40,470 nucleotides of DNA from a virus. Below the pieces are notes generated by a model that saw only the letters and a list, made by a program, of their open reading frames with translations, had not been told where the DNA came from and searched no databases. This document shows, piece after piece, positions 50-37,071 of the stretch. Both the position numbers and the translations under genes were made by a program. Position 1 is the stretch's first letter. The number at the start of each line of letters is the position of its first letter. The DNA lies in UHGV virus genome UHGV-0078430. One strand, 5' to 3'.

Positions 50-1570
50 ATGAGGAGCGTAATTACATACTTGAGATTCTCATCAGCCATACAAGGCGCT
101 GAAGGTGCAGATTCAACCAGACGACAAAATGACCTGTTCAAGCAGTGGCTGAAGAAGAATAGCGATGCTCAAGTAGTAGCGTCTTTCAGTGATGAAGGTC
201 TATCCGGTTACAAAGGTAAGCATCTTACTGGTCAGTTTGGTGACATGTTAGCCCGTATTGAGTCTGGGGAGTTTCCAGAAGGTACGATTTTGCTTGTTGA
301 GAGTATCGACCGTATAGGCCGCTTAGAACACCTTGAAACAGAAGCCTTGATGAATCGCATCTTAGGCAACGGGTTAGAGATTCACACGCTACAAGATGGT
401 CTTATCTACACAAAGGATGCTTTAGCCGATGATTTAGGAATCTCAATCATCCAGCGTGTCAAAGCCTACATAGCGCATCAGGAGAGTAAGCAGAAGTCTT
501 TCCGTGTTAGCGAGAAGTGGAAACAACGTGCAAAACTTGCCCTTGCTGGTGAACAACGTTTAACAAAGATGGTTCCCGGATGGATTGACCCCGATACTCT
601 CAAACTCAATGAACACGCTGAGACTGTAAGACTGATTTTCAAGCTGCTGCTAAGTGGTGAAAGTCTGCATAACATTGCACGTCACCTTCAAAGCAACGGT
701 ATAAAGTCGTTTAGTCGCCGTAAAGATGCTAACGGGTTCAGTGTTCATTCTGTGCGTACTATCTTAAGGTCAGAGACAACGATAGGCACACTACCAGCAT
801 CACAACGTAATGACCGCCCCGCTATACCGAACTACTACGAAGCCGCCATAGACGCTGCAACGTTCAATAAAGCTCAAGAAATCCTCGATAAAAATCGTAA
901 AGGCCGTACACCTGCAAGTGATAACCCATTAACGATTAACATCTTCAAGGGATTATTCCGGTGTCAGTGTGGGGCTAGTGTCCATCCTACCGGAACAAAG
1001 AATAAGTATGCTGGGGTCTACAGGTGCAATAACCACTTAGACGGTCGCTGTGATGTTCCACCGCTGAAGCGTAAACCGTTTGATAAGTGGATGCTTGAAA
1101 ATTTTCTAGGAATGATTGACGTGGGGAATGATGGAGAAGCAGAGGGGAAGATTGCATCTCTACAGCATGAGGTTGAAATTGTCACAACCAGAATCAAGAA
1201 AGCTACCGCCCTACTTCTTGAGATGGATGATATTGATGAACTAAAAATTCAGATTAAGGAACTGAACCAGAGGCGTACAGAGCTACAGACCACGATTGAT
1301 AACATGAGGCGTAAGGCTTCACTCACTGATAAGGAACTACCCCAGCTTAAAGATATTGACCTGACAACTAAAGCGGGTCGTGTCGAGTGTCAGTTGATTT
1401 TGTCCAAACATCTAAAAGGGCTTACATTGGGTAAGGATTCGGTAATTGTAACGCTACAGAACGACACTGAAATCACCATACCTACAAACCCGTTACCGCT
1501 AAATGATGGAACATCAATATTTGAAATTGCTGAAAAAGAGCTACTAGAAATAGACGCTTATCAACTGTAA
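50..1570 (+). CDS. large serine recombinase (integrase/resolvase family)
   Basis: N-terminal YLRFSSAIQ catalytic-serine motif and ESIDRIGR motif typical of resolvase-type catalytic domain; 506 aa with Cys-rich zinc-ribbon-like block (CQCGAS...YRCNNHLDGRC) and coiled-coil C-terminus as in large serine recombinases. Confidence 0.85.
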   Translation: MRSVITYLRFSSAIQGAEGADSTRRQNDLFKQWLKKNSDAQVVASFSDEGLSGYKGKHLTGQFGDMLARIESGEFPEGTILLVESIDRIGRLEHLETEALMNRILGNGLEIHTLQDGLIYTKDALADDLGISIIQRVKAYIAHQESKQKSFRVSEKWKQRAKLALAGEQRLTKMVPGWIDPDTLKLNEHAETVRLIFKLLLSGESLHNIARHLQSNGIKSFSRRKDANGFSVHSVRTILRSETTIGTLPASQRNDRPAIPNYYEAAIDAATFNKAQEILDKNRKGRTPASDNPLTINIFKGLFRCQCGASVHPTGTKNKYAGVYRCNNHLDGRCDVPPLKRKPFDKWMLENFLGMIDVGNDGEAEGKIASLQHEVEIVTTRIKKATALLLEMDDIDELKIQIKELNQRRTELQTTIDNMRRKASLTDKELPQLKDIDLTTKAGRVECQLILSKHLKGLTLGKDSVIVTLQNDTEITIPTNPLPLNDGTSIFEIAEKELLEIDAYQL

Positions 1571-1575
1571 TTTTC

Positions 1576-1598
1576 AGGGGCTATGAAGCCCCTTTTTA
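1576..1598 (+). terminator. putative Rho-independent terminator after recombinase gene
   Basis: 7-bp stem aggggct/agcccct with 4-nt loop followed by ttttta. Confidence 0.45.
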
Positions 1599-1602
1599 TG
1601 TC

Positions 1603-2394
1603 TCAATAAGTGCCCTTCTTGTTCGGATTTACAGAAAACTTCCGTAAAGCATTACCCGACTTAAGCACCTTTGAAGCTTGCTCATTAGCTGAGGCTGTGA
1701 AGGTGCTCTCACCATTTTTAACACTAACGCTCTTAGAGCACGTTACACGGGCTTTTAGCGCTTCATCTGATAACTCACTTGCCGAATAGCTAAAAAGCTC
1801 TTTACAGGTCAGCATAGGGCTTCCAAGACTCGTTGTAGTGTTGCCAGTGTTCTTTTTACTGGTAGCACCACCATCATTCGTAGTCGCGGCTTTTCCAGTT
1901 GCAGCCGAGATATCAGTCTGCCCCACAATAGCTTTAAAGTTAATTTCCTGAAAAGTTAGCTGGATTCTTAGGCCATTTGAAATACCAACATCTTTAGAGG
2001 CTTTAAAGCTCGTGATAATGGAATCATCAATTTTAATTCCGTCTTTACAGATGACCGAAATAATCTGCTTCTGGTCACGCCAGTTTTCCAGAGTGTCGAT
2101 GAAGTTTTCTACCAGCTTATTATCTCTTGAGATAAGGATACTACCGGATTCACCAACCACAACCACACCACTAATAGTAATTGTTCTGGGTGAACGCATT
2201 ACATTATCTGTTACAGTCTGCCCTGATTGCATATTTTGAGTGGTCACCATCATAGGGCTGTCATATTCCATGTTTTCAGTTGCTGATAGTGACAAGAAAT
2301 TATCTGGTTGGCCTTGTAGATGAAAGTAAACGCCATCTTTACCAGTGTAACGAAGCTGATTAGTGTAAATCATTAAATTCTCCTTTGATTTCAA
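1603..2394 (-). CDS. hypothetical protein, possibly distal-tail (Dit)-like by position
   Basis: 263-aa ORF immediately downstream of tape-measure-like gene, Ser/Thr-rich C-terminal half; function inferred only from position. Confidence 0.4.
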
Positions 2395-2455
2395 AGGCTT
2401 AGTGTATTTTAATCATTTTTAACCAAGCCTTTGATATATAAGTGTTTTCTCTGCT

Positions 2456-2519
2456 AAGCGTGTTGTACGTAAATTCTATTTTTCAGTGTGGGTATTAGCT
2501 TTACAGATTTCACGTAGCA
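2456..2519 (-). promoter_or_regulatory. conserved upstream element, copy 1
   Basis: about 64 bp sharing blocks (tgctacgtgaaatct, atacccac, tttacgta, cacgctta on the minus strand) with a second copy at 4601-4663; lies upstream of ORF 1603-2394. Confidence 0.45.
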
Positions 2520-2530
2520 TTCGACTATTA

Positions 2531-4579
2531 TTAATCATCTTCTGGGAATGATGAACTTAATAGCGTAGCTTCTGCATATTGGTCGTAGATATTACTGCTA
2601 AAGGTCATAAAGCTGGTTTCATCTGGTTTAATGGCAACTTCACCACCAAGTGAAACTTTCACAGGCTCCTGAATACGTTTGCTCAAAGCACTAATTTCAT
2701 CTCTCAGGCTTTGGATATCCGTATTCGTTAATGCCGCATCTTGTCTCATGGTGATTAATTCTGGATGCTGGAAGTTAGCAAGATTCATAGCTGCACTACT
2801 AAACCAACCTTTAACATCGTCCATAGTGAACACTGGTTTAAGTCCAGACTCTTTAGCTAGCTCTGGTAATTTAGCTTGTGCTTCCATTCGTTCAGGTGTA
2901 GAAGCTAATCTCTCATAACCTGCATAGATAGCACTACCAGCTAATAACATATTCCCAAGATTAAACCTTGATGGTTTCCCGTTCTTTCTATTCACGTTAT
3001 CCGCTGTAGTATCAGCGACCTGACCTAATCTTGTGATAGCAGTCATAAGCCCGTAAATACTTCTGGTTACACCAACAACTTTATTCACAGCAATAACACC
3101 AGCCAAGACTTTTAAACTATTAATCAAGCCAGAACCTAAAGCATCAACTACTTTCTTTTGTTCATCGGTTAAACCACGGTAAGCTAATGTCACCTCATCA
3201 AAGAATGCTCTTACCCTGTAGCTGATATCAGTCAATGAATCCACACCACTTGACATAGAAGTCATGAGACTACCAAGAGATTCACCAAGACTTTTACCGC
3301 TTCCACCTAAACTATTTAAAAGATTGGTTAAGCTTCTTGTGAAATCTTGAAGACCATTTTCAGAACCTCTGAAGATACTATCAAGCGTGGTATTCCAAGA
3401 GTTTTTCAGGTTCCCTAGTTGTGCCTGTGTACTTTCTGAAATAGCTTTCCAGCCGCCTTTAGCGGTGATTTGTCTATTCAGTTCCTGAGTGACCTTCTGA
3501 AGAGTATCGGCAGATTTTAAAGCCCCCTTCTTCATGGCATCAAATAATTCCTGTTCAGTCTTTCCGGTTGCTTTAGCGAATACCTGAACCATACCAGGAA
3601 CAGCTTCAGCTAATTGCCCCTTAAGCTCTTCAGCCATAATCTGACCCTTACCAGCCATCTGTGATAATGCTGTCAGTGCTCGCTTAATCTCTTCTTCACT
3701 TCGACCCATTAAACGAGAATAGCCAATCATATTTCTAAAAAGTTCTTCAGAACCTTGAATACCCATAGATTCTTTAGCTGAAGCACCAAAACCAGCAAAC
3801 TGTGATTGCAGTTCAGCGATATCTAAACCCGTTGTTTGAGCTAATGACTTTGTGAAATCTTTTACTTGACCTGCATCTTTATCAAATACGAAATCAATAC
3901 TTCTTTCCGATGATGCACGTTGAAGGCCAACTTCCATTACTCGCTGATAAGCGGATAGTACAGCCTGAAAGCTGATAAATGCACCTGCTGCTCTAACCGC
4001 TGCTGAAGACAGGTTATCAAGGCTGCTAGCTGCTCTGTCACTATTAATGCTGGTGGATGTATGACCTCTGGCTTTAGCAATTGCTTCTCTGACTGAAGCG
4101 TTTAACTGAGCTAACTTCTCATTGAATTTTGAAGAATCCATTGACCCGGCTTTAGCAGATAGCCCGTAAAACTGACTCTTAATGTATTTCTCGACAATTG
4201 GGTTAAGGCCTTTTAGCTTGCTCATATTCGCTGAGTAAGCTGCTGTGATTGCTCTGTTTCCGCTAATTCGTGGCTGTCTTGGTTGTTTTGGAGGATTAAC
4301 AGTGTCATTAAATCTGGTGGTAAACTGGAAAGCTTTAGTATTTCTTGCTCTCTGTTCAATCTTGTCAAAGGCCTTATTAAACTTCCTTTCAAGTTGCCCT
4401 AAAGAACTTGTCAAATTACTATCAAGCTGTTTTGTATTAATCCTGAAACCTTTATTTAGGTTCTTTTCAATTCTTTGTGCTGACTGCAAAGCTGCCTTTT
4501 CAACTCTTTGCAGTCCCTTAATAACGTTCTCGCTGAAGCCTAGCTCAACGATAAAACTATCAACTTTAAATTGTGCCAT
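2531..4579 (-). CDS. phage tail tape-measure-like protein
   Basis: 682 aa, coiled-coil N-terminus, central region resembling tape-measure domain (GLDIAELQSQFAGFGASAKESMG ... ALSQMAGKGQIMAEELKGQLAEAVPG ... FAKATGKTEQELFDAMKKG), Gly/Ser-rich segment; assignment from recalled motif pattern. Confidence 0.6.
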   Translation of the reverse strand: MAQFKVDSFIVELGFSENVIKGLQRVEKAALQSAQRIEKNLNKGFRINTKQLDSNLTSSLGQLERKFNKAFDKIEQRARNTKAFQFTTRFNDTVNPPKQPRQPRISGNRAITAAYSANMSKLKGLNPIVEKYIKSQFYGLSAKAGSMDSSKFNEKLAQLNASVREAIAKARGHTSTSINSDRAASSLDNLSSAAVRAAGAFISFQAVLSAYQRVMEVGLQRASSERSIDFVFDKDAGQVKDFTKSLAQTTGLDIAELQSQFAGFGASAKESMGIQGSEELFRNMIGYSRLMGRSEEEIKRALTALSQMAGKGQIMAEELKGQLAEAVPGMVQVFAKATGKTEQELFDAMKKGALKSADTLQKVTQELNRQITAKGGWKAISESTQAQLGNLKNSWNTTLDSIFRGSENGLQDFTRSLTNLLNSLGGSGKSLGESLGSLMTSMSSGVDSLTDISYRVRAFFDEVTLAYRGLTDEQKKVVDALGSGLINSLKVLAGVIAVNKVVGVTRSIYGLMTAITRLGQVADTTADNVNRKNGKPSRFNLGNMLLAGSAIYAGYERLASTPERMEAQAKLPELAKESGLKPVFTMDDVKGWFSSAAMNLANFQHPELITMRQDAALTNTDIQSLRDEISALSKRIQEPVKVSLGGEVAIKPDETSFMTFSSNIYDQYAEATLLSSSFPEDD

Positions 4580-4600
4580 TGTTCATATTTCACCTCTGTT

Positions 4601-4663
4601 AAGCGTGAGCTACGTAAAAAATAATTTTTGGTGGGTATATCTGTTCAGGAGATTTCACGTAGC
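4601..4663 (-). promoter_or_regulatory. conserved upstream element, copy 2
   Basis: second copy of the 2456-2519 element, ends about 20 nt upstream of the tape-measure-like start codon; contains 7-bp inverted repeat gctacgt/acgtagc. Confidence 0.45.
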
Positions 4664-4789
4664 ACACATACAAAAAAGGGAGAAACTACCGAATAATATC
4701 GATAATCTCTCCCCGTGTTATAGATTCGATAGAACCTATCTCATACACCCAACCAATTCTATTAGATTCGATTAGAAGCTAATCTCAAA

Positions 4790-4999
4790 TTAATGCCTGA
4801 CAAGATAATGTAGTTCCGTTTCACCTATAATTTGAGCATCGGAAGGGATACGGTCGATACACCACTTTGGAATCTTGCGTGTTTTTGGTTTGCGTGAGGT
4901 GATAATTTGATGTTTGGTTTTAATTCTTAAGGCTGGCTTAGTTTGTAACTTTAAGTTTTCACAAACAGACCGGATAGTCTCTAAACGTTCTTCAAACAT
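4790..4999 (-). CDS. hypothetical small basic protein
   Basis: 69-aa ORF between two larger minus-strand genes; no recognisable motif. Confidence 0.3.
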   Translation of the reverse strand: MFEERLETIRSVCENLKLQTKPALRIKTKHQIITSRKPKTRKIPKWCIDRIPSDAQIIGETELHYLVRH

Positions 5000-5022
5000 T
5001 AATCACCTCTTTTAATTCATAA

Positions 5023-5733
5023 TTAAAGCACCTTTGAGTACTTCGTTGAAATCTTCGTTAACTGCTCAATATCGGCTTGCATAGCAATCTTCTTCTGCGT
5101 TTCATATCCACTAACAAGCTCTTTCATGCTATCAAGTTCTTTTCTAAGTTTTTGCTTTAACTTATCCAGTTTACCGGAATAATGCTTAGTCAAATTAGCT
5201 TCAGCTAACTGAAGAATCTCTTCGTCTGTCTTATCAGTCATCAGGATAAATTGACCAGAACCCCTTAATGCTTGTCTGACATCAATTAACCGGAACCCTT
5301 CAGGGATACTTTGAAGAACTTTAGGAACGTCTTCAATCGCTGTACCAAAACCATCATTAAAGTTTCCTTCATAATAGATAAACGGGTTTGACTTAATCTC
5401 GTAAGCAATATCATATTCTGAAGGTTTCGAGGTTTCTTCGAAGTTCTTAACAGCATCGTAAGCAATATCAAGTCGAATACGCTGTTCTTTTAGCCGTGGG
5501 TAATATTCACGCTCAAGCTCAAATAGTGCTTCAGTTTTGCAAACATCAGGCATCTCCTGAGGTTCAGGATACACAAAGATGGTTGTTTTTGGTGACATCT
5601 TTAGCGATTGCTCAAGCTTAATTCTTTCATCGTGTTCTTTACGCTGGATAGTGATAGCTGGATGTTCAGTCTGTGGTGACCAGTCCCCGAAGCTATCAAT
5701 CTTTCTGCCGTTAATAAATAAATCATTTGTCAT
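5023..5733 (-). CDS. hypothetical protein
   Basis: 236-aa ORF with Lys/Glu-rich coiled-coil-like C-terminus; no recognisable catalytic motif. Confidence 0.5.
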   Translation of the reverse strand: MTNDLFINGRKIDSFGDWSPQTEHPAITIQRKEHDERIKLEQSLKMSPKTTIFVYPEPQEMPDVCKTEALFELEREYYPRLKEQRIRLDIAYDAVKNFEETSKPSEYDIAYEIKSNPFIYYEGNFNDGFGTAIEDVPKVLQSIPEGFRLIDVRQALRGSGQFILMTDKTDEEILQLAEANLTKHYSGKLDKLKQKLRKELDSMKELVSGYETQKKIAMQADIEQLTKISTKYSKVL

Positions 5734-5940
5734 TATAACTTCCTCTAAGTGTGGTTATTTCTTAATAGAGCACCTTCAACGCCAATACACTTAGAAGATG
5801 ACTTAACGATTTATTAAAGATGCTCTATTAAGAAAAGCCCTAAACATAGGTTCATCCTTATCTGTGAAGGGCTTTGGAGTTTGCTTATAACGTTAACGGA
5901 GTTTCAGGAAAAACTTTCTTTAAAAGCTCTGTTTAAAAAC

Positions 5941-5973
5941 TCTTAAAGAAACGCCCTAACTCATGATTAGGGC
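5941..5973 (-). terminator. putative terminator between upstream 4-gene operon and downstream genes
   Basis: stem gccctaa/ttagggc with 7-nt loop; on the minus strand followed by gtttcttt. Confidence 0.35.
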
Positions 5974-6304
5974 AAAGCTGTAAGGGTTCAATAATGAATG
6001 ATTAAGCACTTTTTGATATATAGCCTATCTAGTGGGCTAAATAGGCCATGTAGCGAAAAGCATTGCACCTTTCAGAATGTTCGGTATAGAACATACCTCA
6101 CCAACTCAGAATATCCATCCATCCATCGGATTATTGAAAGAAAAATAAGAGAGAATTACTCTCCCATAATTAAAATTATGTCATGCTTAAGGTTATTTGT
6201 CAACAGCTTTTTAACAGATTGGTAACATTAATTCTTATTTACCGTGTTACCTACCCAGCAACCAACAAATAAACCCAAAGCTGTCCAAGCAATTATTAAG
6301 CCCA

Positions 6305-6649
6305 TTAATGCACCACCTTCGAATCCGTCACCAAAATATTGTCAGCGTACAAAATTGCTATAGCTGCCTTGAGATATCCTTCAGGGCTAACGCTGTATTT
6401 GTTCGTTTGCTCGATAACCAATCTTTTCATGTTGCTGTCTTTAATTGGTAGCATCATTCGAGGCTCGTTAAACTCCACCGACTGAATAAAGTCAGAGATG
6501 CTTTCCGCATTATCAGCCATTAACTCTAACAACTTATCAAAGTCAATGCTAACACCTACATCAGTGAAAGCCTGAATCATCATAGCGGTGTCGTTATCAA
6601 CCATAATTTGCATTGGGTAATTGTTCATTTTTAAATTCCTATAAAACAC
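6305..6649 (-). CDS. hypothetical protein
   Basis: 114-aa ORF, last gene of a co-directional 4-gene cluster; true start may be internal Met (MNNYPMQ). Confidence 0.45.
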   Translation of the reverse strand: MFYRNLKMNNYPMQIMVDNDTAMMIQAFTDVGVSIDFDKLLELMADNAESISDFIQSVEFNEPRMMLPIKDSNMKRLVIEQTNKYSVSPEGYLKAAIAILYADNILVTDSKVVH

Positions 6650-6765
6650 ATCTTAAATCTGCCAAAATAGCCATTCTGAGGCCAGTAACCATGCGGGTTA
6701 CAGAGGGAGTGAGACACCTTAGTAATAGGGTAGCTCATCTTTGAGTCTCACTCATTCTTACAGGC

Positions 6766-7152
6766 TTACACAGACGCTTTAATCTTGTAGTATTGACTGC
6801 GTGATAAACCGTATTTCTCAGAAATATAACTTTGTGATTGTCCTTTGGTGATTGCATCAATGATTAAATCTTTATCGTATCTTTTACCGTTGGCTTTGTG
6901 CTTGTCGCCACTTTTAATAGAGTTGAAATTCTCAATTAATTTAATGGCGTCTTTAAGGTCGTCTTCGTAAGCATAATCAAAACCCCTGATAAACTCGAAA
7001 TCACCATTATCTTTTTGTGCTTCAGTCCAGATATCAAATCTTGAGGCTAATTGCTGGTGGGTAAACTTGGGCTTATTGGTTTGTGTTACGTCTTTCCAGA
7101 CTTTACCGTCAAATCTTACCAAATGGTCACGATGTTTATAAAAGTCATACAT
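6766..7152 (-). CDS. hypothetical protein with C-terminal helix-turn-helix
   Basis: 128 aa; C-terminus ISEKYGLSRSQYYKIK resembles HTH of resolvase/terminase-small-subunit/transposase-type DNA-binding domains. Confidence 0.5.
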   Translation of the reverse strand: MYDFYKHRDHLVRFDGKVWKDVTQTNKPKFTHQQLASRFDIWTEAQKDNGDFEFIRGFDYAYEDDLKDAIKLIENFNSIKSGDKHKANGKRYDKDLIIDAITKGQSQSYISEKYGLSRSQYYKIKASV

Positions 7153-7430
7153 TAAACCTCCATCGCTAATTTGTGAATTTTAATGCTTAGTAACCTTGCT
7201 AAATCCAGTCCAAAAGCATTTAAAGATTTCAGATTATCAAGGTCGGCTTGCTCAATCCTGATATGGTGTCTTGCAGCCTCTAAGCGGCTATTAAGCAAAT
7301 CTTGTTCGTTAATATCACGGTTAATTGCAAGCTTCATCACTGCTGAGTGTGGCAGACCTGTAATGTTTTTGATTCGGTTCAGTTCATCAAAGGCTGTCTT
7401 TGTAACTCTGGTTAAAGTGTGTTTGCTCAT
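7152..7430 (-). CDS. hypothetical protein
   Basis: 92-aa ORF; start overlaps stop region of upstream gene and stop abuts next gene (translational coupling). Confidence 0.45.
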   Translation of the reverse strand: MSKHTLTRVTKTAFDELNRIKNITGLPHSAVMKLAINRDINEQDLLNSRLEAARHHIRIEQADLDNLKSLNAFGLDLARLLSIKIHKLAMEV

Positions 7431-7431
7431 T

Positions 7432-7989
7432 TTAAAATTCCTCTGTAACTAAATACGGGTCAAACTCGAAATCTGGTTGCTCGTTTTCCATTGGCTCAAT
7501 ATTTCCAACGGCAATATGATGCTCAACAACACCAATTAACTTTGCGCACATTACAGCAAGCAAAGCGCAATATTTATCGCTTGGTAATTCATGGCTAAGT
7601 CTGGTTGCTTGACGCTGAAGATGATTTGTCACGGTGGCTGAGTTAATTTCATCAAGACTTCGCAGTAAATAAAAAACCTTCTGGTTGTATTTCTGGTGAC
7701 CCTCGCTTCTGCAAAATCCAATAAAAATATCATCAAGCTTGCTCGGTAGTTGCGCGTAGCTGTCAAAGCTAGCCAGATAATTCTTGATGCTGTTCTTTGT
7801 TGTTTTGCGTGTTGGCATGTAACGGTTCCTCGGTGTAATTGCCCGAATTACTTCGTCAATGCCTTTGCGTTCTTTCTTGGTAAACTTGGGTAATTCGTGG
7901 CTGGTGGGGGAGTTTGTGTAAGCGTAGGAGTTGTGCTTGTTGCGTTCTCTTGATGCCTGAAGCATCGCTCTAAATTCTGCGTCTCTCAT
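7432..7989 (-). CDS. hypothetical protein
   Basis: 185-aa ORF, first gene of the 4-gene cluster; divergent promoter region upstream (7990-8112). Confidence 0.5.
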   Translation of the reverse strand: MRDAEFRAMLQASRERNKHNSYAYTNSPTSHELPKFTKKERKGIDEVIRAITPRNRYMPTRKTTKNSIKNYLASFDSYAQLPSKLDDIFIGFCRSEGHQKYNQKVFYLLRSLDEINSATVTNHLQRQATRLSHELPSDKYCALLAVMCAKLIGVVEHHIAVGNIEPMENEQPDFEFDPYLVTEEF

Positions 7990-8076
7990 TCATATTCTGA
8001 CCCTCATAAGATGTTATTATTCTGTTAACTTATATAGACAATACTAGCATTTTCAAAGACTAATGTCAAGCATTTT

Positions 8077-8106
8077 TTAACATTTTATTAACATCTGTGG
8101 TATAAT
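8077..8106 (+). promoter_or_regulatory. putative sigma70 promoter with extended -10
   Basis: TGgTATAAT at 8098-8106 with ttaaca -35-like hexamer about 17-18 bp upstream. Confidence 0.4.
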
Positions 8107-8286
8107 GGTTCTATGGGGAGAGTAAAATATAAAGGCGTGGCTATGATTTGGTCACATGGTTATTGCATTGCACACAGACCTCTTCAATCGCTCTGTAACG
8201 AGTTAAACAGCCTCTTAAGGTCAACTATAAGGTCAGGTACTTTTTTGTGTCAGAATGCGATTGAGAGCGTCTTACAAGGAAAACTA

Positions 8287-8463
8287 ATGGTAAATCTCCC
8301 TCCTGAGCTGGGGTCACCTGATGTGTGGGCTGGTGGAGGTGTGGGTCTGTTCGCAGGTCTGTTACTTCGCTACGTCCTCGTCAGGGTGCTTGTTGTCTTT
8401 AGACTGTTCGGTCGTACATGGACGCTTGACCTTAAGGATAACAACCACACAGACCCCCGTTAA
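8287..8463 (+). CDS. small hydrophobic (single-pass membrane-like) protein
   Basis: 58-aa ORF (MVNLPPELGSPDVWAGGGVGLFAGLLLRYVLVRVLVVF...) preceded by AAGGA RBS; sits in a locally GC-rich patch inside the AT-rich island, downstream of a strong promoter; both overlapping frames are open so coding status is uncertain. Confidence 0.3.
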   Translation: MVNLPPELGSPDVWAGGGVGLFAGLLLRYVLVRVLVVFRLFGRTWTLDLKDNNHTDPR

Positions 8464-8476
8464 ACTCCCTTCAAAA

Positions 8477-8515
8477 CCCCCTGTACGAGATGGTATAGGG
8501 GTATCTTTAGCATTT
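8477..8515 (+). terminator. weak terminator-like hairpin
   Basis: cccct/agggg stem with 14-nt loop followed by T-rich tatctttagcatttt. Confidence 0.25.
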
Positions 8516-8583
8516 TGTGCTATCTATTAAAAAACAGCTTGACATAACCGGAAAGCTGTATCTATCAAGTATTCACCTCTCTG

Positions 8584-8755
8584 ACAGTAATTGCTAAAAG
8601 TTCTTATTTTTCAATAAGTTGTAATTAGCCATATATAGAGAACTGACAAGCCTCTTCACAGTTAACTCTGAAACCTTAACAGTAAATTCTAAAAGTTCTT
8701 ATTTTTCAATGAGTTGTAATTAGCCAATATAAAGGACTGACAAGACCCTTCACAG
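8584..8755. repeat. tandem direct repeat, 2 copies of about 78 bp at 95-bp period
   Basis: 8584-8661 and 8679-8755 align along their length (acagtaa.t.ctaaaagttcttatttttcaat.agttgtaattagcca...gactgacaag.c.cttcacag). Confidence 0.7.
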
Positions 8756-8783
8756 AGAACTTCCTGGACTCACTAAGATACAA

Positions 8784-8990
8784 GGCGATAACCCCAGAAA
8801 GGGAGAGCCACCTTCTTAACCGACTTCTTAAACAATCTTTACAGACCCCGTTCACCAGTCTCAATATTTTTATTTCTCGCTCTTCGTTTGTTGCTCGTTT
8901 CTATTATTGAGGGGGTTTGAAAAACCTCTGTAAAATAACCCTTCCAGTAAAAAGCGAATAACCCCAGACAGGGGAAATCGCCTCTTTAAC
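8784..8990. repeat. two copies of about 36-bp element
   Basis: gcgataaccccagaaagggagagccaccttcttaac (8784-8820) and gcgaataaccccagacaggggaaatcgcctctttaac (8954-8990). Confidence 0.4.
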
Positions 8991-9021
8991 ATTCTCGTAA
9001 TCAGTGCTCTATATGAGAATT

Positions 9022-9684
9022 TTAGCCCAACCTTTGAGCAATCCTGTATGACGTGCTCAGAGGCATTCTGAGAGCATCTGCAATGCACTTAATGGGTTTG
9101 CCTTGCCTGTATAGTTTTATGAAGCTGTCGAGCGTCTCAGGTGGGTAAATGGTGGGTCTTCCTCTTAAGCCTCCTCTGTTAATGATGGTTAACGGTAATA
9201 GCGTGTCAGCACAGCAAACCATCTGCGTAATTTCATGCTTACGTGGTTCTTTTTTAAAAACAACGACTGCACTTGGAAACGGTGAACGAATAACAAGCCT
9301 GTTATGGCCTGCTGGTGGAAGGTATTTAACTGCACGATGAAGAATACGGATTTCATGGCAAAGCGGGTTTGTGAAGATGTGCTTAAGCCAGTATATGGTT
9401 TGGGGTCGGTACGGTATCAGGAATACCGCTAAATCTGCTTCAGACGCTTTTACGAGGAATGTTTTAGTGTCGCTGTATGGTGGGTTACAGAATACCTTTT
9501 CACCAACCCATGACTGATTGTGGATATCATCGGTGAACCGTGGCAACAATGCGTCATGCTCAGTTGCAGCACCATCCAGACTGAAACTAAACTCACGGTG
9601 TAAGTTCTTGAATAATAAAAATGGAGTTCTCCAGTAATCAGAACCCCCATGATGTTTCCCGATTAAAATACACTCAATTGACAT
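9022..9684 (-). CDS. phage-type DNA N6-adenine methyltransferase (Dam family) with C-terminal HTH
   Basis: FCNPPYSD catalytic motif, DGAATEHDALLPRF upstream motif typical of phage Dam-like MTases; C-terminal HTH-like tail (LSTSYRIAQRLG). Confidence 0.8.
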   Translation of the reverse strand: MSIECILIGKHHGGSDYWRTPFLLFKNLHREFSFSLDGAATEHDALLPRFTDDIHNQSWVGEKVFCNPPYSDTKTFLVKASEADLAVFLIPYRPQTIYWLKHIFTNPLCHEIRILHRAVKYLPPAGHNRLVIRSPFPSAVVVFKKEPRKHEITQMVCCADTLLPLTIINRGGLRGRPTIYPPETLDSFIKLYRQGKPIKCIADALRMPLSTSYRIAQRLG

Positions 9685-10001
9685 AAGAAATAAAAATTTT
9701 TATTGCAATCACTCTTGACAAGGTTTACTCTCTTTTAAGAGATACTTAACAGGCTTTCTAAACGGATATCCTTTCTGGGATATCTATCTCTTATCTTAAA
9801 AGTCTTTATAGATACTTTAAAGATATCTGTATTAAATCTGTACAGTAACTTTTCAGACTCTGAAAATTTTTATAAAATCGTAATAGCCCCTCTTCAAATT
9901 CCCCTTCTAAAAATCTTCGAAAATATCTATCACAGGTCTATACCTGCTAAGTACCCGCCACACCAGCTATGTGACCCCCTTTGCAGAATTTTAAAATATC
10001 T

Positions 10002-10766
10002 ATGAGGTTTATTCGATAGAGGTTGGTACAAGCCCAACTAACCGAATCAACTATTGACTTTCTTCATAGTATCTGTTAACTCCACCTCAAGAAACCTTCA
10101 TCACACTTCAAAGCATCTATCAAGAAGATTTAACCTATCAATAGCTGTAACATTTTATAGTTCTGTGAAGTCCTATCCAGTTTTCTCTGTAACAGACACA
10201 AACTTCTGTGACCTTATGTATCAATGACTTACAAGACATGCTCTCAAGGTGCTGTATAGCCTCTTATCAGCCAATACACAAAACCCTTATAAATCAGTAC
10301 TGATACATATACAGTGTGTTTTTAACATAATAGCTGTTTTACGCACTAATCGTGTTCTACATGAAATCTGTATAGATATTAAGGTGTCTGTAAGTGATTT
10401 TTTAAGAGGAACTACGAAGGAACTATGAGGTTGATTCCTAGAACTAACCGAATCAACTATAACCATCACCTCCTAACTTTCACATAGCTGATTGTTATCT
10501 CTTGCAACTGTAACGTATGGTGACCAAACATCTATATATCGTTATATAGCCCTGTATATAGCACTTTTCTAGGAGTCTGGAGAGGGACGACTAACACGAT
10601 ACAGTTTACCCTGAAAAGAGACTTCACAGATTCTTTATATATTTCAATAAGTTAGGGTAAAAAGAGACTATGCTGATACTGCATAGAATCTGTGTAAAAC
10701 TGCTTAGATACTTGGGAAAATGCCTTTAAATTGCATAGTCATAGGGGTTGGAACAAGCCCAACTAC
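10002..10766. repeat. family of three related 25-55-bp elements in an ORF-poor region
   Basis: 10002-10056 atgaggtttattcgatagaggttggtacaagcccaactaaccgaatcaactat; 10424-10460 atgaggttgattcctagaactaaccgaatcaactat; 10741-10766 ataggggttggaacaagcccaacta; core gttgg-N7-ccaac dyad. Confidence 0.5.
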
Positions 10767-11054
10767 ACCTGATATTGTCCTGTAATTAACAGGTCTCTTA
10801 GAAAACCGAATAGACTTCATTCAAGGGTCATTGAAGTCATAATCATTTCAGTAGAAAAACCAGGTCTCGATTTTAAATGCAAATAGCAATCATATTCAAT
10901 AAGGCAAGACGATCAGGATCAGTGAAAATGTCATTTTTGGCGTAATTACCCTTACTTTATGCATGGCCTTAACAAAGACATCATCTTTCCGTTGCAGATC
11001 TTCGCCCTTTCAAATAACGTACTTTACAACTTTCCCGAACAAGGAGTTGTGCCC

Positions 11055-11351
11055 GTGTTGTATGTTATTTACGCTCAAGACAAAGCTGATAGCCTCGAAA
11101 AACGCCTTTCCGTTCGTCCGGCACATTTAGCACGTTTACAGTTACTGCATGATGAAGGTCGTTTGTTGACAGCTGGTCCAATGCCAGCGGTAGACAGTAA
11201 CGATCCAGGGGCTGCGGGATTTACTGGCTCAACCGTTATTGCTGAATTTGAATCGCTGGAAGCAGCTCAGGCCTGGGCCGATGCTGACCCGTACGTAGCG
11301 GCAGGAGTCTATGAACACGTTTCAGTGAAACCATTTAAGAAAGTGTTCTAA
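11055..11351 (+). CDS. yciI: YciI-like protein
   Basis: 98-aa product from GTG start with AAGGAG RBS 8 nt upstream; sequence (RPAHLARLQ...GRLLTAGP...ADPYV..GVYE) matches my recollection of enterobacterial YciI family; the longer ORF from 10959 is probably not the real start. Confidence 0.75.
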
Positions 11352-36996: not shown

Positions 36997-37071
36997 TGGC
37001 GGGACAGGAAGGATTCGAACCTTCGACCAATCGGTTAACAGCCGATCTCACAACCTCTGTGCTTCTGACCC
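36997..37071 (-). tRNA. tRNA-Asn-like (anticodon GUU), possibly phage-borne or degenerate
   Basis: manual cloverleaf: acceptor GGGTCAG/CTGTCCC (one T-T mismatch), D-arm with GG, anticodon stem ATCGG/CCGAT with loop CTGTTAA, T-arm GAAGG-TTCGAAT-CCTTC, encoded CCA. Confidence 0.45.

Follow-up and report, generated by a model that had tools for sequence, protein, structure and literature searches.

Two 95-bp repeats that lie head to tail at the start of positions 8584-8990 of virus genome UHGV-0078430, a 40,470-nucleotide (nt) stretch of DNA referred to throughout as the window, are real, non-coding, conserved DNA modules. They belong to an integrative island, and most likely represent a tandem duplication of a cis-acting, protein-binding control module in its backbone. 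Our preferred interpretation, held tentatively, is that the two units are a pair of rightward promoters controlled by integration host factor (IHF) and by a regulator. The evidence for this view, and for the alternatives that we weighed, is presented below, and the coordinates of the features are collected in Table 1.

The repeats are two abutting, conserved 95-bp units

An earlier note on this DNA, made from its letters and open reading frames (ORFs), described tandem repeats with a 95-bp period and units of about 78 bp. The period and the coordinates were correct. A direct-repeat search resolved the pair into two head-to-tail blocks, 8584-8631 with 8679-8726 (48 nt, 94% identity, spacing 95) and 8633-8667 with 8727-8761 (35 nt, 83% identity, spacing 94), and self-BLAST returned 8584-8667 against 8679-8761 as a single 84-nt alignment (88.1% identity, E = 1.9e-24). 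The near-identity over some 78 bp was also real, but it describes the well-matching part of the repeat: because the units abut, the period of 95 bp is also the unit length. No further copy was found anywhere in the window when the intergenic stretch was compared with it by self-BLAST. Tandem Repeats Finder missed the pair; a repeat of only two copies probably falls below its scoring limit. The GC content across the units is 30-34%. We found no plus-strand ORF of at least 40 amino acids (aa) within them, and inspection by eye revealed stops in all frames.

The module is widespread. At least part of region 8400-9100 was matched by megablast in 497 of 5,426 complete E. coli genomes, and an exact pattern for the conserved core of the unit was present in 58 metagenome and 4 viral-contig stretches; all metagenome loci with this core belong to the same island family, except two (L029 and L062). 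The unit is conserved in 67 related, non-redundant loci from E. coli, E. albertii and gut metagenomes. The comparison of copy number between strains that the earlier note had proposed was carried out on these loci with nhmmer, which found one unit in 18, two in 48 and three in a single locus (L031), with a period of 94-97 bp among relatives. By contrast with this family, distant relatives of the island have no equivalent 95-bp repeats, and only L080 carries a 26-nt pair, 89 bp apart. Region 8000-9100 had no match at E <= 1e-5 in 50,697 phage records, Felixounavirus genomes included, the repeat region gave chance-level matches only when the cutoff was relaxed to E <= 10, and a plasmid collection contained no match.

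Comparison of 93-94 distinct unit sequences revealed where the module is constrained. Unit positions 1-48 are nearly invariant (consensus ACAGtaAnTTCTAAAAnnnCTTATTTTTCAAtnAGTTGTAATnAnCCA), while the flanks and right halves vary; the right half nonetheless retains ATATA, CTG, AG and CTTCACAG. In most relatives the first unit (U1) and the second (U2) are only 78-80% identical, and the duplication is therefore old. The invariance of the left half and the retention of both copies despite diverged right halves argue for selection on the module itself, and this pattern of variation clearly suggests that unit function is constrained. We considered whether the pair could instead be a neutral tandem duplication that has no function of its own, is simply inherited and disappears through unequal crossing-over. 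Consistent with such a history, loci have between one and three copies, and those with one carry a U1/U2 hybrid, as expected of unequal crossing-over. However, both copies were kept in 48 of the 67 loci with right halves at 78-80% identity, and left halves that are nearly invariant in 93 distinct sequences indicate selection. We therefore regard a neutral origin as very improbable.

Each unit combines promoter-like hexamers, an IHF-type core and a palindrome

A sigma-70-like match stands at the start of each unit. The hexamers and their spacing, yTrACA-18-TATTTT, persist in 89 of the 93 distinct units, and a second promoter candidate, TTCAAT-17/18-TATAnn, is likewise kept among units. An unbiased consensus scan found no promoter-like sites on the minus strand inside the units. 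Thus, both units have the hexamers and spacing of a predicted sigma-70 promoter, though the match is weak.

Unit positions 26-38 form an IHF-type core, TTTCAA-NNN-GTTG, behind a T-rich tract. Upstream of the cores TTTCAATAAGTTG and TTTCAATGAGTTG lies CTTATTTTT. The cores were scored against the IHF consensus, WATCAANNNNTTR, and TTTCAATAAGTTG resembles the lambda H' site, TATCAATTTGTTG. Among 93 units, the specified positions of the core TTTCAAnnnGTTG are invariant and only the N positions vary. With a core and an upstream A/T tract, both units have the sequence features of a putative IHF site.

Finally, a 19-bp imperfect palindrome, CTGnnnAGnnnCTTCACAG, which has the form CTGnnnAG-N3-CTTCACAG, lies 3' of the TATA-like block and is present in 90 of 93 distinct units. 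The window contains three such palindromes where none is expected; the third, at 10611-10629, belongs to a compact motif pair in a strongly conserved part of the right arm. The window has six copies of CTTCACAG, compared to 1.2 expected, and every one of them lies in the island. In each unit this motif follows about 72 bp after an ACAGTAA at the unit start.

We investigated whether CTTCACAG could be a promoter mark of Felix O1-like phages, the group to which the tail genes of the island point (see below). The nine copies in the first 50 kb of phage PHB11 all fall inside coding sequences and have no shared context, and the idea was rejected on this ground. For the Felix O1 genome, host-type promoters only and no phage sigma factor or RNA polymerase are reported (PMC3185647), so it offers no motif with which the units could be compared.

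Tandem regulated promoters as the preferred reading

Among the functions that the earlier note had listed, tandem promoters fit best, given plus-strand hexamers kept in nearly all units, although the individual matches are weak. In the mechanism we propose, RNA polymerase would start rightward transcription of the non-coding or cargo arm just past the terminator of a small ORF. We counted the position of the units, directly after this terminator-like hairpin, in favor of promoters. IHF would shape the upstream DNA through the A/T tract and TTTCAAnnnGTTG, and a dimeric regulator, encoded by the island or by a helper phage, would gate firing at the CTTCACAG palindrome, which lies about 20 bp beyond the hexamers and looks like the operator of such a protein. 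The 95-bp spacing corresponds to about nine helical turns and would place both modules on the same face of the DNA. One module suffices, because one-copy islands exist, and the second may raise output or allow cooperative binding.

The same transcription could also reach the integrase gene. In one relative, the metagenome contig L036 (ERZ506742.633, 11,233 bp), the complete island is present in circularly permuted form, with the junction at approximately 5380-5523 of the contig. The first and last 55 nt of the contig are identical, which is the signature of a circular assembly. The right arm of this circle leads into int on the same strand, and the third motif pair sits about 240 bp upstream of the start codon. 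In the excised circle, same-direction transcription would continue towards int.

Several observations weigh against regulated promoters. The matches are weak (9/12), and such matches are common in this A/T-rich DNA (9 found versus 4.0 +/- 1.8 in shuffles), and conservation spans the spacer, far beyond what a promoter requires. There is no conserved gene downstream, and many relatives lack any ORF of at least 70 aa in the whole right arm; in the window, dam faces the units. A strong terminator in the arm of relative L014 would stop transcripts before int. Moreover, no candidate regulator emerged: a fold could not be assigned to ORF185, and ORF128, which bears a helix-turn-helix (HTH), is not universal.

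A known parallel for this reading is the tandem promoters rrn P1 and P2, which lie about 120 bp apart and have upstream A/T (UP-like) elements. The units resemble them in having two same-direction candidate promoters about 100 bp apart, with A/T-rich DNA upstream and with sites for proteins of the nucleoid or for regulators. They differ in that the island units are duplicates of one module, with weak hexamers and no evident downstream gene product.

A replication or packaging site as an alternative

The main alternative, possible if somewhat unlikely, is that the units constitute a cis-acting replication or packaging site of the island. An island or helper protein would bind the CTnnACAG motifs at both unit ends, and IHF would bend the DNA between them and so bring the motifs together. 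In line with this proposal, the IHF-type core is flanked by the invariant ACAGTAA and by CTTCACAG, the period would keep the units in helical phase, and conservation exceeds the needs of a promoter. Furthermore, the island excises as a circle, and an 11.2-kb circle needs an origin or packaging site; the units are among its few repeat-bearing non-coding stretches. Finally, a single copy suffices here as it does for crr of satellite P4.

The crr site consists of two direct repeats of about 120 bp in which the alpha primase-helicase acts at TGTTCACC octamers; it works with ori1, and one copy is enough. Like crr, the units are two long head-to-tail repeats, each with a recognition motif, in a non-coding stretch of an integrative element of about 11 kb. 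Unlike crr, they lack TGTTCACC and have CTTCACAG as their motif, and the island has no alpha-like protein. A similar comparison can be made with sites organized by IHF, such as lambda cosB (R3-I1-R2, in which R sites combine with I1), lambda attP H' and P1 parS. The units share with them a WATCAANNNNTTR-type core, an upstream A/T tract and recognition motifs on both sides; however, the island has no terminase, tyrosine integrase or ParB, and IHF binding in the units is only predicted. The integrase of the island is a large serine recombinase, a type not known to need arm sites. A third system, the Vibrio cholerae phage-inducible chromosomal island-like element (PLE), has an origin of short iterons bound by a RepA_N initiator that is encoded alongside. 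The island resembles PLE in its large serine recombinase, its preponderance of ORFans, its putative dependence on a virulent myovirus and its long repeat-bearing non-coding region, but it has no RepA_N-like protein, no iterons and no sequence relationship to PLE.

The evidence that counts against a replication or packaging site comes from both the DNA and the proteins. Iteron-type origins combine an array of short direct repeats with an A/T-rich unwinding region and an initiator gene. Tandem Repeats Finder detected no short-period repeat array in 8465-9021, which speaks against iterons, as suggested in the earlier note, of the classical short form. No recognizable initiator, primase or terminase small subunit was found among the island proteins, nor any Rep, primase or helicase domain. 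The lack of similar sequence in the phage records and of such repeats in distant island relatives also speaks against this function, and an equally conserved block at 10045-10740 is an alternative candidate for it. A copy of a helper cos or pac site was ruled out for 8000-9100 by the absence of similar sequence from the 50,697 phage records.

RNA-based readings and rejected candidates

The earlier note had also raised small RNA (sRNA) genes. In the structured sense, this suggestion failed. A search of the whole window with Rfam 15 identified only a tRNA at 37000-37071. Below threshold, region 7900-9100 matched only eukaryotic families (E 1.8-6.8), and four relatives yielded nothing. The predicted fold of 8570-8790 (221 nt) was no more stable than that of shuffles (z = +1.23 on the plus strand and -0.73 on the minus strand), and RNAalifold detected no consensus structure on either strand among 94 distinct units (-0.3 and 0 kcal/mol).

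The unit could also be, or drive, a small unstructured regulatory RNA that base-pairs with a helper-phage or island transcript; P4 CI and P1 c4 are immunity RNAs that act by base pairing. We consider this improbable. Each unit has promoter-like hexamers, its sequence rather than its structure is conserved, and the right arm of relative L014 holds an sRNA-like unit with promoter and terminator, indicating that this arm can host RNA genes. On the other hand, there is no terminator at the unit end, the fold energy is no better than that of shuffles, and Rfam gave no match even below threshold apart from the eukaryotic families mentioned above. In addition, self-BLAST (word size 7, E <= 1) found no complementary target for 7990-9021 in the window, and phage genomes gave chance-level matches only.

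Tandem direct repeats 3' of promoter-like sequence are also what a ToxI-like RNA of a type III toxin-antitoxin system, or another repeat-RNA antitoxin, would look like. We find this hardly credible: the period is 95 as against about 34-45 nt for ToxI, there is neither RNA structure nor a PADLOC match to such a system, and no ToxN-like gene lies downstream, where dam is on the opposite strand or, in relatives, there is no ORF. The missing toxin gene effectively refutes the idea. PADLOC reported only an orphan methyltransferase and one borderline integrase match.

Two further candidates were rejected. A type I toxin-antitoxin system, composed of a small transmembrane ORF and an antisense RNA, was dismissed for lack of complementarity between the units and the ORF mRNA. 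A clustered regularly interspaced short palindromic repeat (CRISPR) array, which has at least three repeats of about 23-47 bp with unique spacers of similar size between them, was ruled out, as the earlier note had already concluded, by units that abut without spacers and that number at most three in any relative.

Table 1. Positions of the repeat units, their motifs and other island features in the window.
Feature	Position	Strand	Basis or remark
Island, ~10.8 kb	50-10800 (right end approximate)		Gene content, relatives
Large serine recombinase (int)	50-1570	+	Domain search
263-aa Dit-like, Felixounavirus-like tail protein	1603-2394	-	Similarity search
Tape-measure protein, 682 aa	2531-4579	-	Similarity search
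ORF185	7432-7989	-	Operon start
Right arm, almost entirely non-coding	~7990-10800		ORF list
Divergent promoter-like pair	8041-8106	both	Consensus scan
58-aa ORF, one hydrophobic (transmembrane) helix, conserved	8287-8463	+	ORF list, relatives
Terminator-like hairpin, 3' of 58-aa ORF and 5' of units	8478-8501	+	Inverted in L007 and L068
Sigma-70-like match CTGACA-18-TATTTT, start of unit 1	8581-8610	+	Consensus scan, 9/12
Repeat unit 1 (95 bp)	8584-8678	+	Repeat search, self-BLAST; right half U1-type, conserved across relatives
IHF-type core TTTCAATAAGTTG, unit 1 (predicted)	8609-8621	+	12/13 match to WATCAANNNNTTR, A/T tract upstream
Operator-like palindrome CTGACAAGCCTCTTCACAG, unit 1	8643-8661	+	Pattern scan of window
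Sigma-70-like match TTAACA-18-TATTTT, start of unit 2	8676-8705	+	Consensus scan, 9/12
Repeat unit 2 (95 bp)	8679-8773	+	Repeat search, self-BLAST, relatives
IHF-type core TTTCAATGAGTTG, unit 2 (predicted)	8704-8716	+	12/13 match to WATCAANNNNTTR
Operator-like palindrome CTGACAAGACCCTTCACAG, unit 2	8737-8755	+	Pattern scan of window
Short repeat copy 1 (ATAACCCCAGAAAGGG...CTTCTTAAC)	8788-8820	+	Direct-repeat search
12-nt mini-repeat CTTCTTAACCGA	8812-8833	+	Two copies in the window; relatives have as many as four
Short repeat copy 2, at backbone/dam-cassette junction	8958-8990	+	Direct-repeat search
dam (Dam domain and C-terminal resolvase-type HTH_7), optional cassette	9022-9684	-	Domain search
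Third, compact motif pair CTGAAAAGAGACTTCACAG, then 13 nt on TTTCAATAAGTTA	10611-10656	+	Near island right end

The short repeat pair as a probable mark of the dam-cassette junction

Downstream of the units, the earlier note had reported a second repeat pair with hairpin potential. The pair exists, and a CCCC-AGAnA-GGG(G) mini-hairpin is present in both copies, but the repeat is weak (33 nt, 76% identity), is not significant by itself (26 nt, E = 0.42, self-BLAST), and its copies are not adjacent, with starts 170 bp apart. Relatives lend it credibility. Four of them (L019, L043, L066 and L070) have a single hybrid, composed of the left part of copy 1 and the right part of copy 2, with the dam cassette directly after it. 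In relatives that lack dam, copy 1 (GCGATAACCCCAGAGAGGGAAGCTCCCTTCTTAAC) is conserved and is followed by two to four 12-nt units, while the sequence at the position of copy 2 is diverged. Hybrids joined to the dam cassette, together with a diverged copy 2 site where dam is absent, suggest that the pair marks a duplicated cassette junction. It looks like the site at which the dam cassette recombined into the backbone and not like a functional hairpin pair. A boxA/nut-like reading of copy 2 (CGCCTCTTTAACA) was rejected, as this sequence is not kept in other lineages.

The placement of the 95-bp repeats downstream of dam holds on the dam strand (9684->9022), but many relatives retain the repeats without dam. 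The cargo slot in relatives contains an AP2/HNH-type gene on the plus strand or nothing. The link to dam and to island-encoded HTH proteins that the earlier note had drawn is weak: the units are part of the backbone of the island, but neither dam nor the 128-aa ORF with its HTH is constant.

Other features of the right arm

The region from 7990 to 9021 contains no convincing ORF other than the conserved 58-aa ORF, whose protein has no family match in any library searched. The strongest promoter-like match of the region, 8077-8106 (TTAACA-18-TATAAT with a TG extended -10, 11/12 matches), precedes this ORF and probably drives it. Its divergent, leftward partner, TTGACA-17-TAGTAT, is likewise strong and lies at 8069-8041. 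A segment of about 100 nt in the 5' untranslated region of the ORF, 8178-8277, is an insertion or deletion relative to L001, L002 and L007. Most relatives, though not the window, have a second copy of its first 42 nt about 900 bp upstream. The terminator-like hairpin behind the ORF is reverse-complemented in L007 and L068 (cccctataccatctcgtacagggg versus cccctgtacgagatggtatagggg), with unchanged flanks.

Downstream of the units we found only short hairpins (-7.8 kcal/mol), in which 4 of 22 pairs are compensated in an alignment of 18 relatives. These compensatory and G-U changes are weak evidence that the plus strand may be transcribed. Further to the right, 10045-10740 is a non-coding block of about 700 bp. 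Apart from a variable stretch at about 10425-10540, conservation among 22 distinct relatives reaches 95% or more at the majority of its positions, and the block is more conserved than the neighboring protein genes. The block has no RNA-structure signal (z -0.36 and +0.22), no RNAalifold structure and no Rfam match. It is a candidate for an attP-proximal, origin or packaging region.

A miniature inverted-repeat transposable element (MITE)-like sequence of about 50 nt occupies 10006-10054. It is bounded by terminal inverted repeats that are imperfect (GTTTATTCG...CGAATCAAC), is flanked by CTAT(G) duplications and has a hairpin at its center. Truncated copies lie at about 10425-10460 and about 10740-10770, and a further copy is found at 8084-8136 of L002. 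The window has the right-arm site filled and the 5' untranslated-region site empty; the reverse is true of L002 and L007. Relatives have a second element family, AATTGGTATTGTTA[TGAGGATGCTTCATCCGAATCATCTA]CCAATCC, between unit 2 and the cargo; it comes in a long and a short form and is similar to the end of the island in yecE.

In relatives that have no cargo, the right arm includes a convincing sRNA-like unit that is absent from the window (in L014, reverse complement of about 8072-8270). Its predicted transcript of some 170 nt is G-rich and is accompanied by a TTGACG-N17-TATAAT promoter-like sequence and by a strong terminator (GGACTCC-ttcac-GGAGTCC, then T6). The unit has no Rfam match.

The island that carries the repeats

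The minus-strand operon of the island reads, in order, ORF185, several ORFans, a 236-aa ORF, the tape-measure gene and the gene for the 263-aa Dit-like protein. ORF185 is found on at least 1,000 Shigella sonnei contigs. In other bacteria, its distant relatives (27-35% identity) occur in similarly built islands that encode a serine recombinase, a tape-measure protein and a small resolvase/invertase; sometimes they also include a Dam at 51% identity, which in the very distant island L077 occupies the same place as here. The island interrupts yecE in E. coli 50EVA and adjoins yciI in the window and in other strains. Conserved non-coding DNA makes up about a quarter of its approximately 11.2 kb.

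With its small size, its own integrase and a circular form, this integrative element has the make-up of a candidate phage satellite. The known families have characteristic genes: alpha, sid, psu and delta in P4-like elements; alpA, pri-rep and terS or rpp in phage-inducible chromosomal islands (PICIs); a capsid module in capsid-forming PICIs (cfPICIs); and RepA_N in PLE. None of these hallmarks was detected in the ten island proteins with PHROGs, Pfam or NCBIfam. The tail genes provide a different lead. Over its full length, the 263-aa protein shares 70% identity with a protein encoded just after the tape-measure gene in approximately 250 virulent Felixounavirus phages, and between the tape-measure proteins of the island and of these phages the identity is 29% from end to end. 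In Felix O1, gp68 is a virion protein and gp67 a probable tape-measure protein (PMC3185647); by its position, the 263-aa protein would be the equivalent of gp68. The presence of only two tail genes, both Felixounavirus-like and probably copied from such phages, on an 11-kb integrative island suggests a satellite or tail-interference element of a virulent Felix O1-like phage.

Upstream of the tail genes, a strong leftward promoter-like sequence, TTGACA-17-CATAAT with a TG (6203-6175), is followed at once by a terminator-like hairpin (6167-6145). A second hairpin (5974-5952) precedes the 236-aa ORF and the two tail genes. Such an arrangement (5734-6304, minus strand) suggests antitermination-type control of the tail genes.

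A literature search returned no description of such an island or of any Felixounavirus satellite, and the island appears to be undescribed. One might further propose that the repeats are the helper-sensing control site, or the origin, of undescribed E. coli/Shigella satellites that parasitize virulent Felix O1-like myoviruses; in that case a protein of the phage or of the island would act at the tandem IHF/CTTCACAG modules to switch the island on. We judge this extended proposal unlikely. Tandem duplications of cis-regulatory sequence are ordinary, and the interest of this pair lies mainly in the element it would control. Felix O1-like phages are used for typing of Salmonella and E. coli, in biocontrol and in therapy, and a satellite or tail-interference element directed at them would be of practical relevance to these uses. 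It would also be a rare parallel, among Enterobacteria, to the PLE-ICP1 system of Vibrio, and the module with its IHF-type core and CTTCACAG would then be an experimental handle, as bait for the regulator, as a reporter of induction or as a target for deletion.

Beyond the right end of the island lies a yciI-like ORF (10959-11351), followed by a separate prophage of the myovirus type that occupies 11470-40470. The prophage encodes a Pin-like invertase and tail fibre, baseplate, sheath, tape-measure, capsid, portal and terminase proteins, and the tRNA at 37000-37071 lies within this region on the minus strand.

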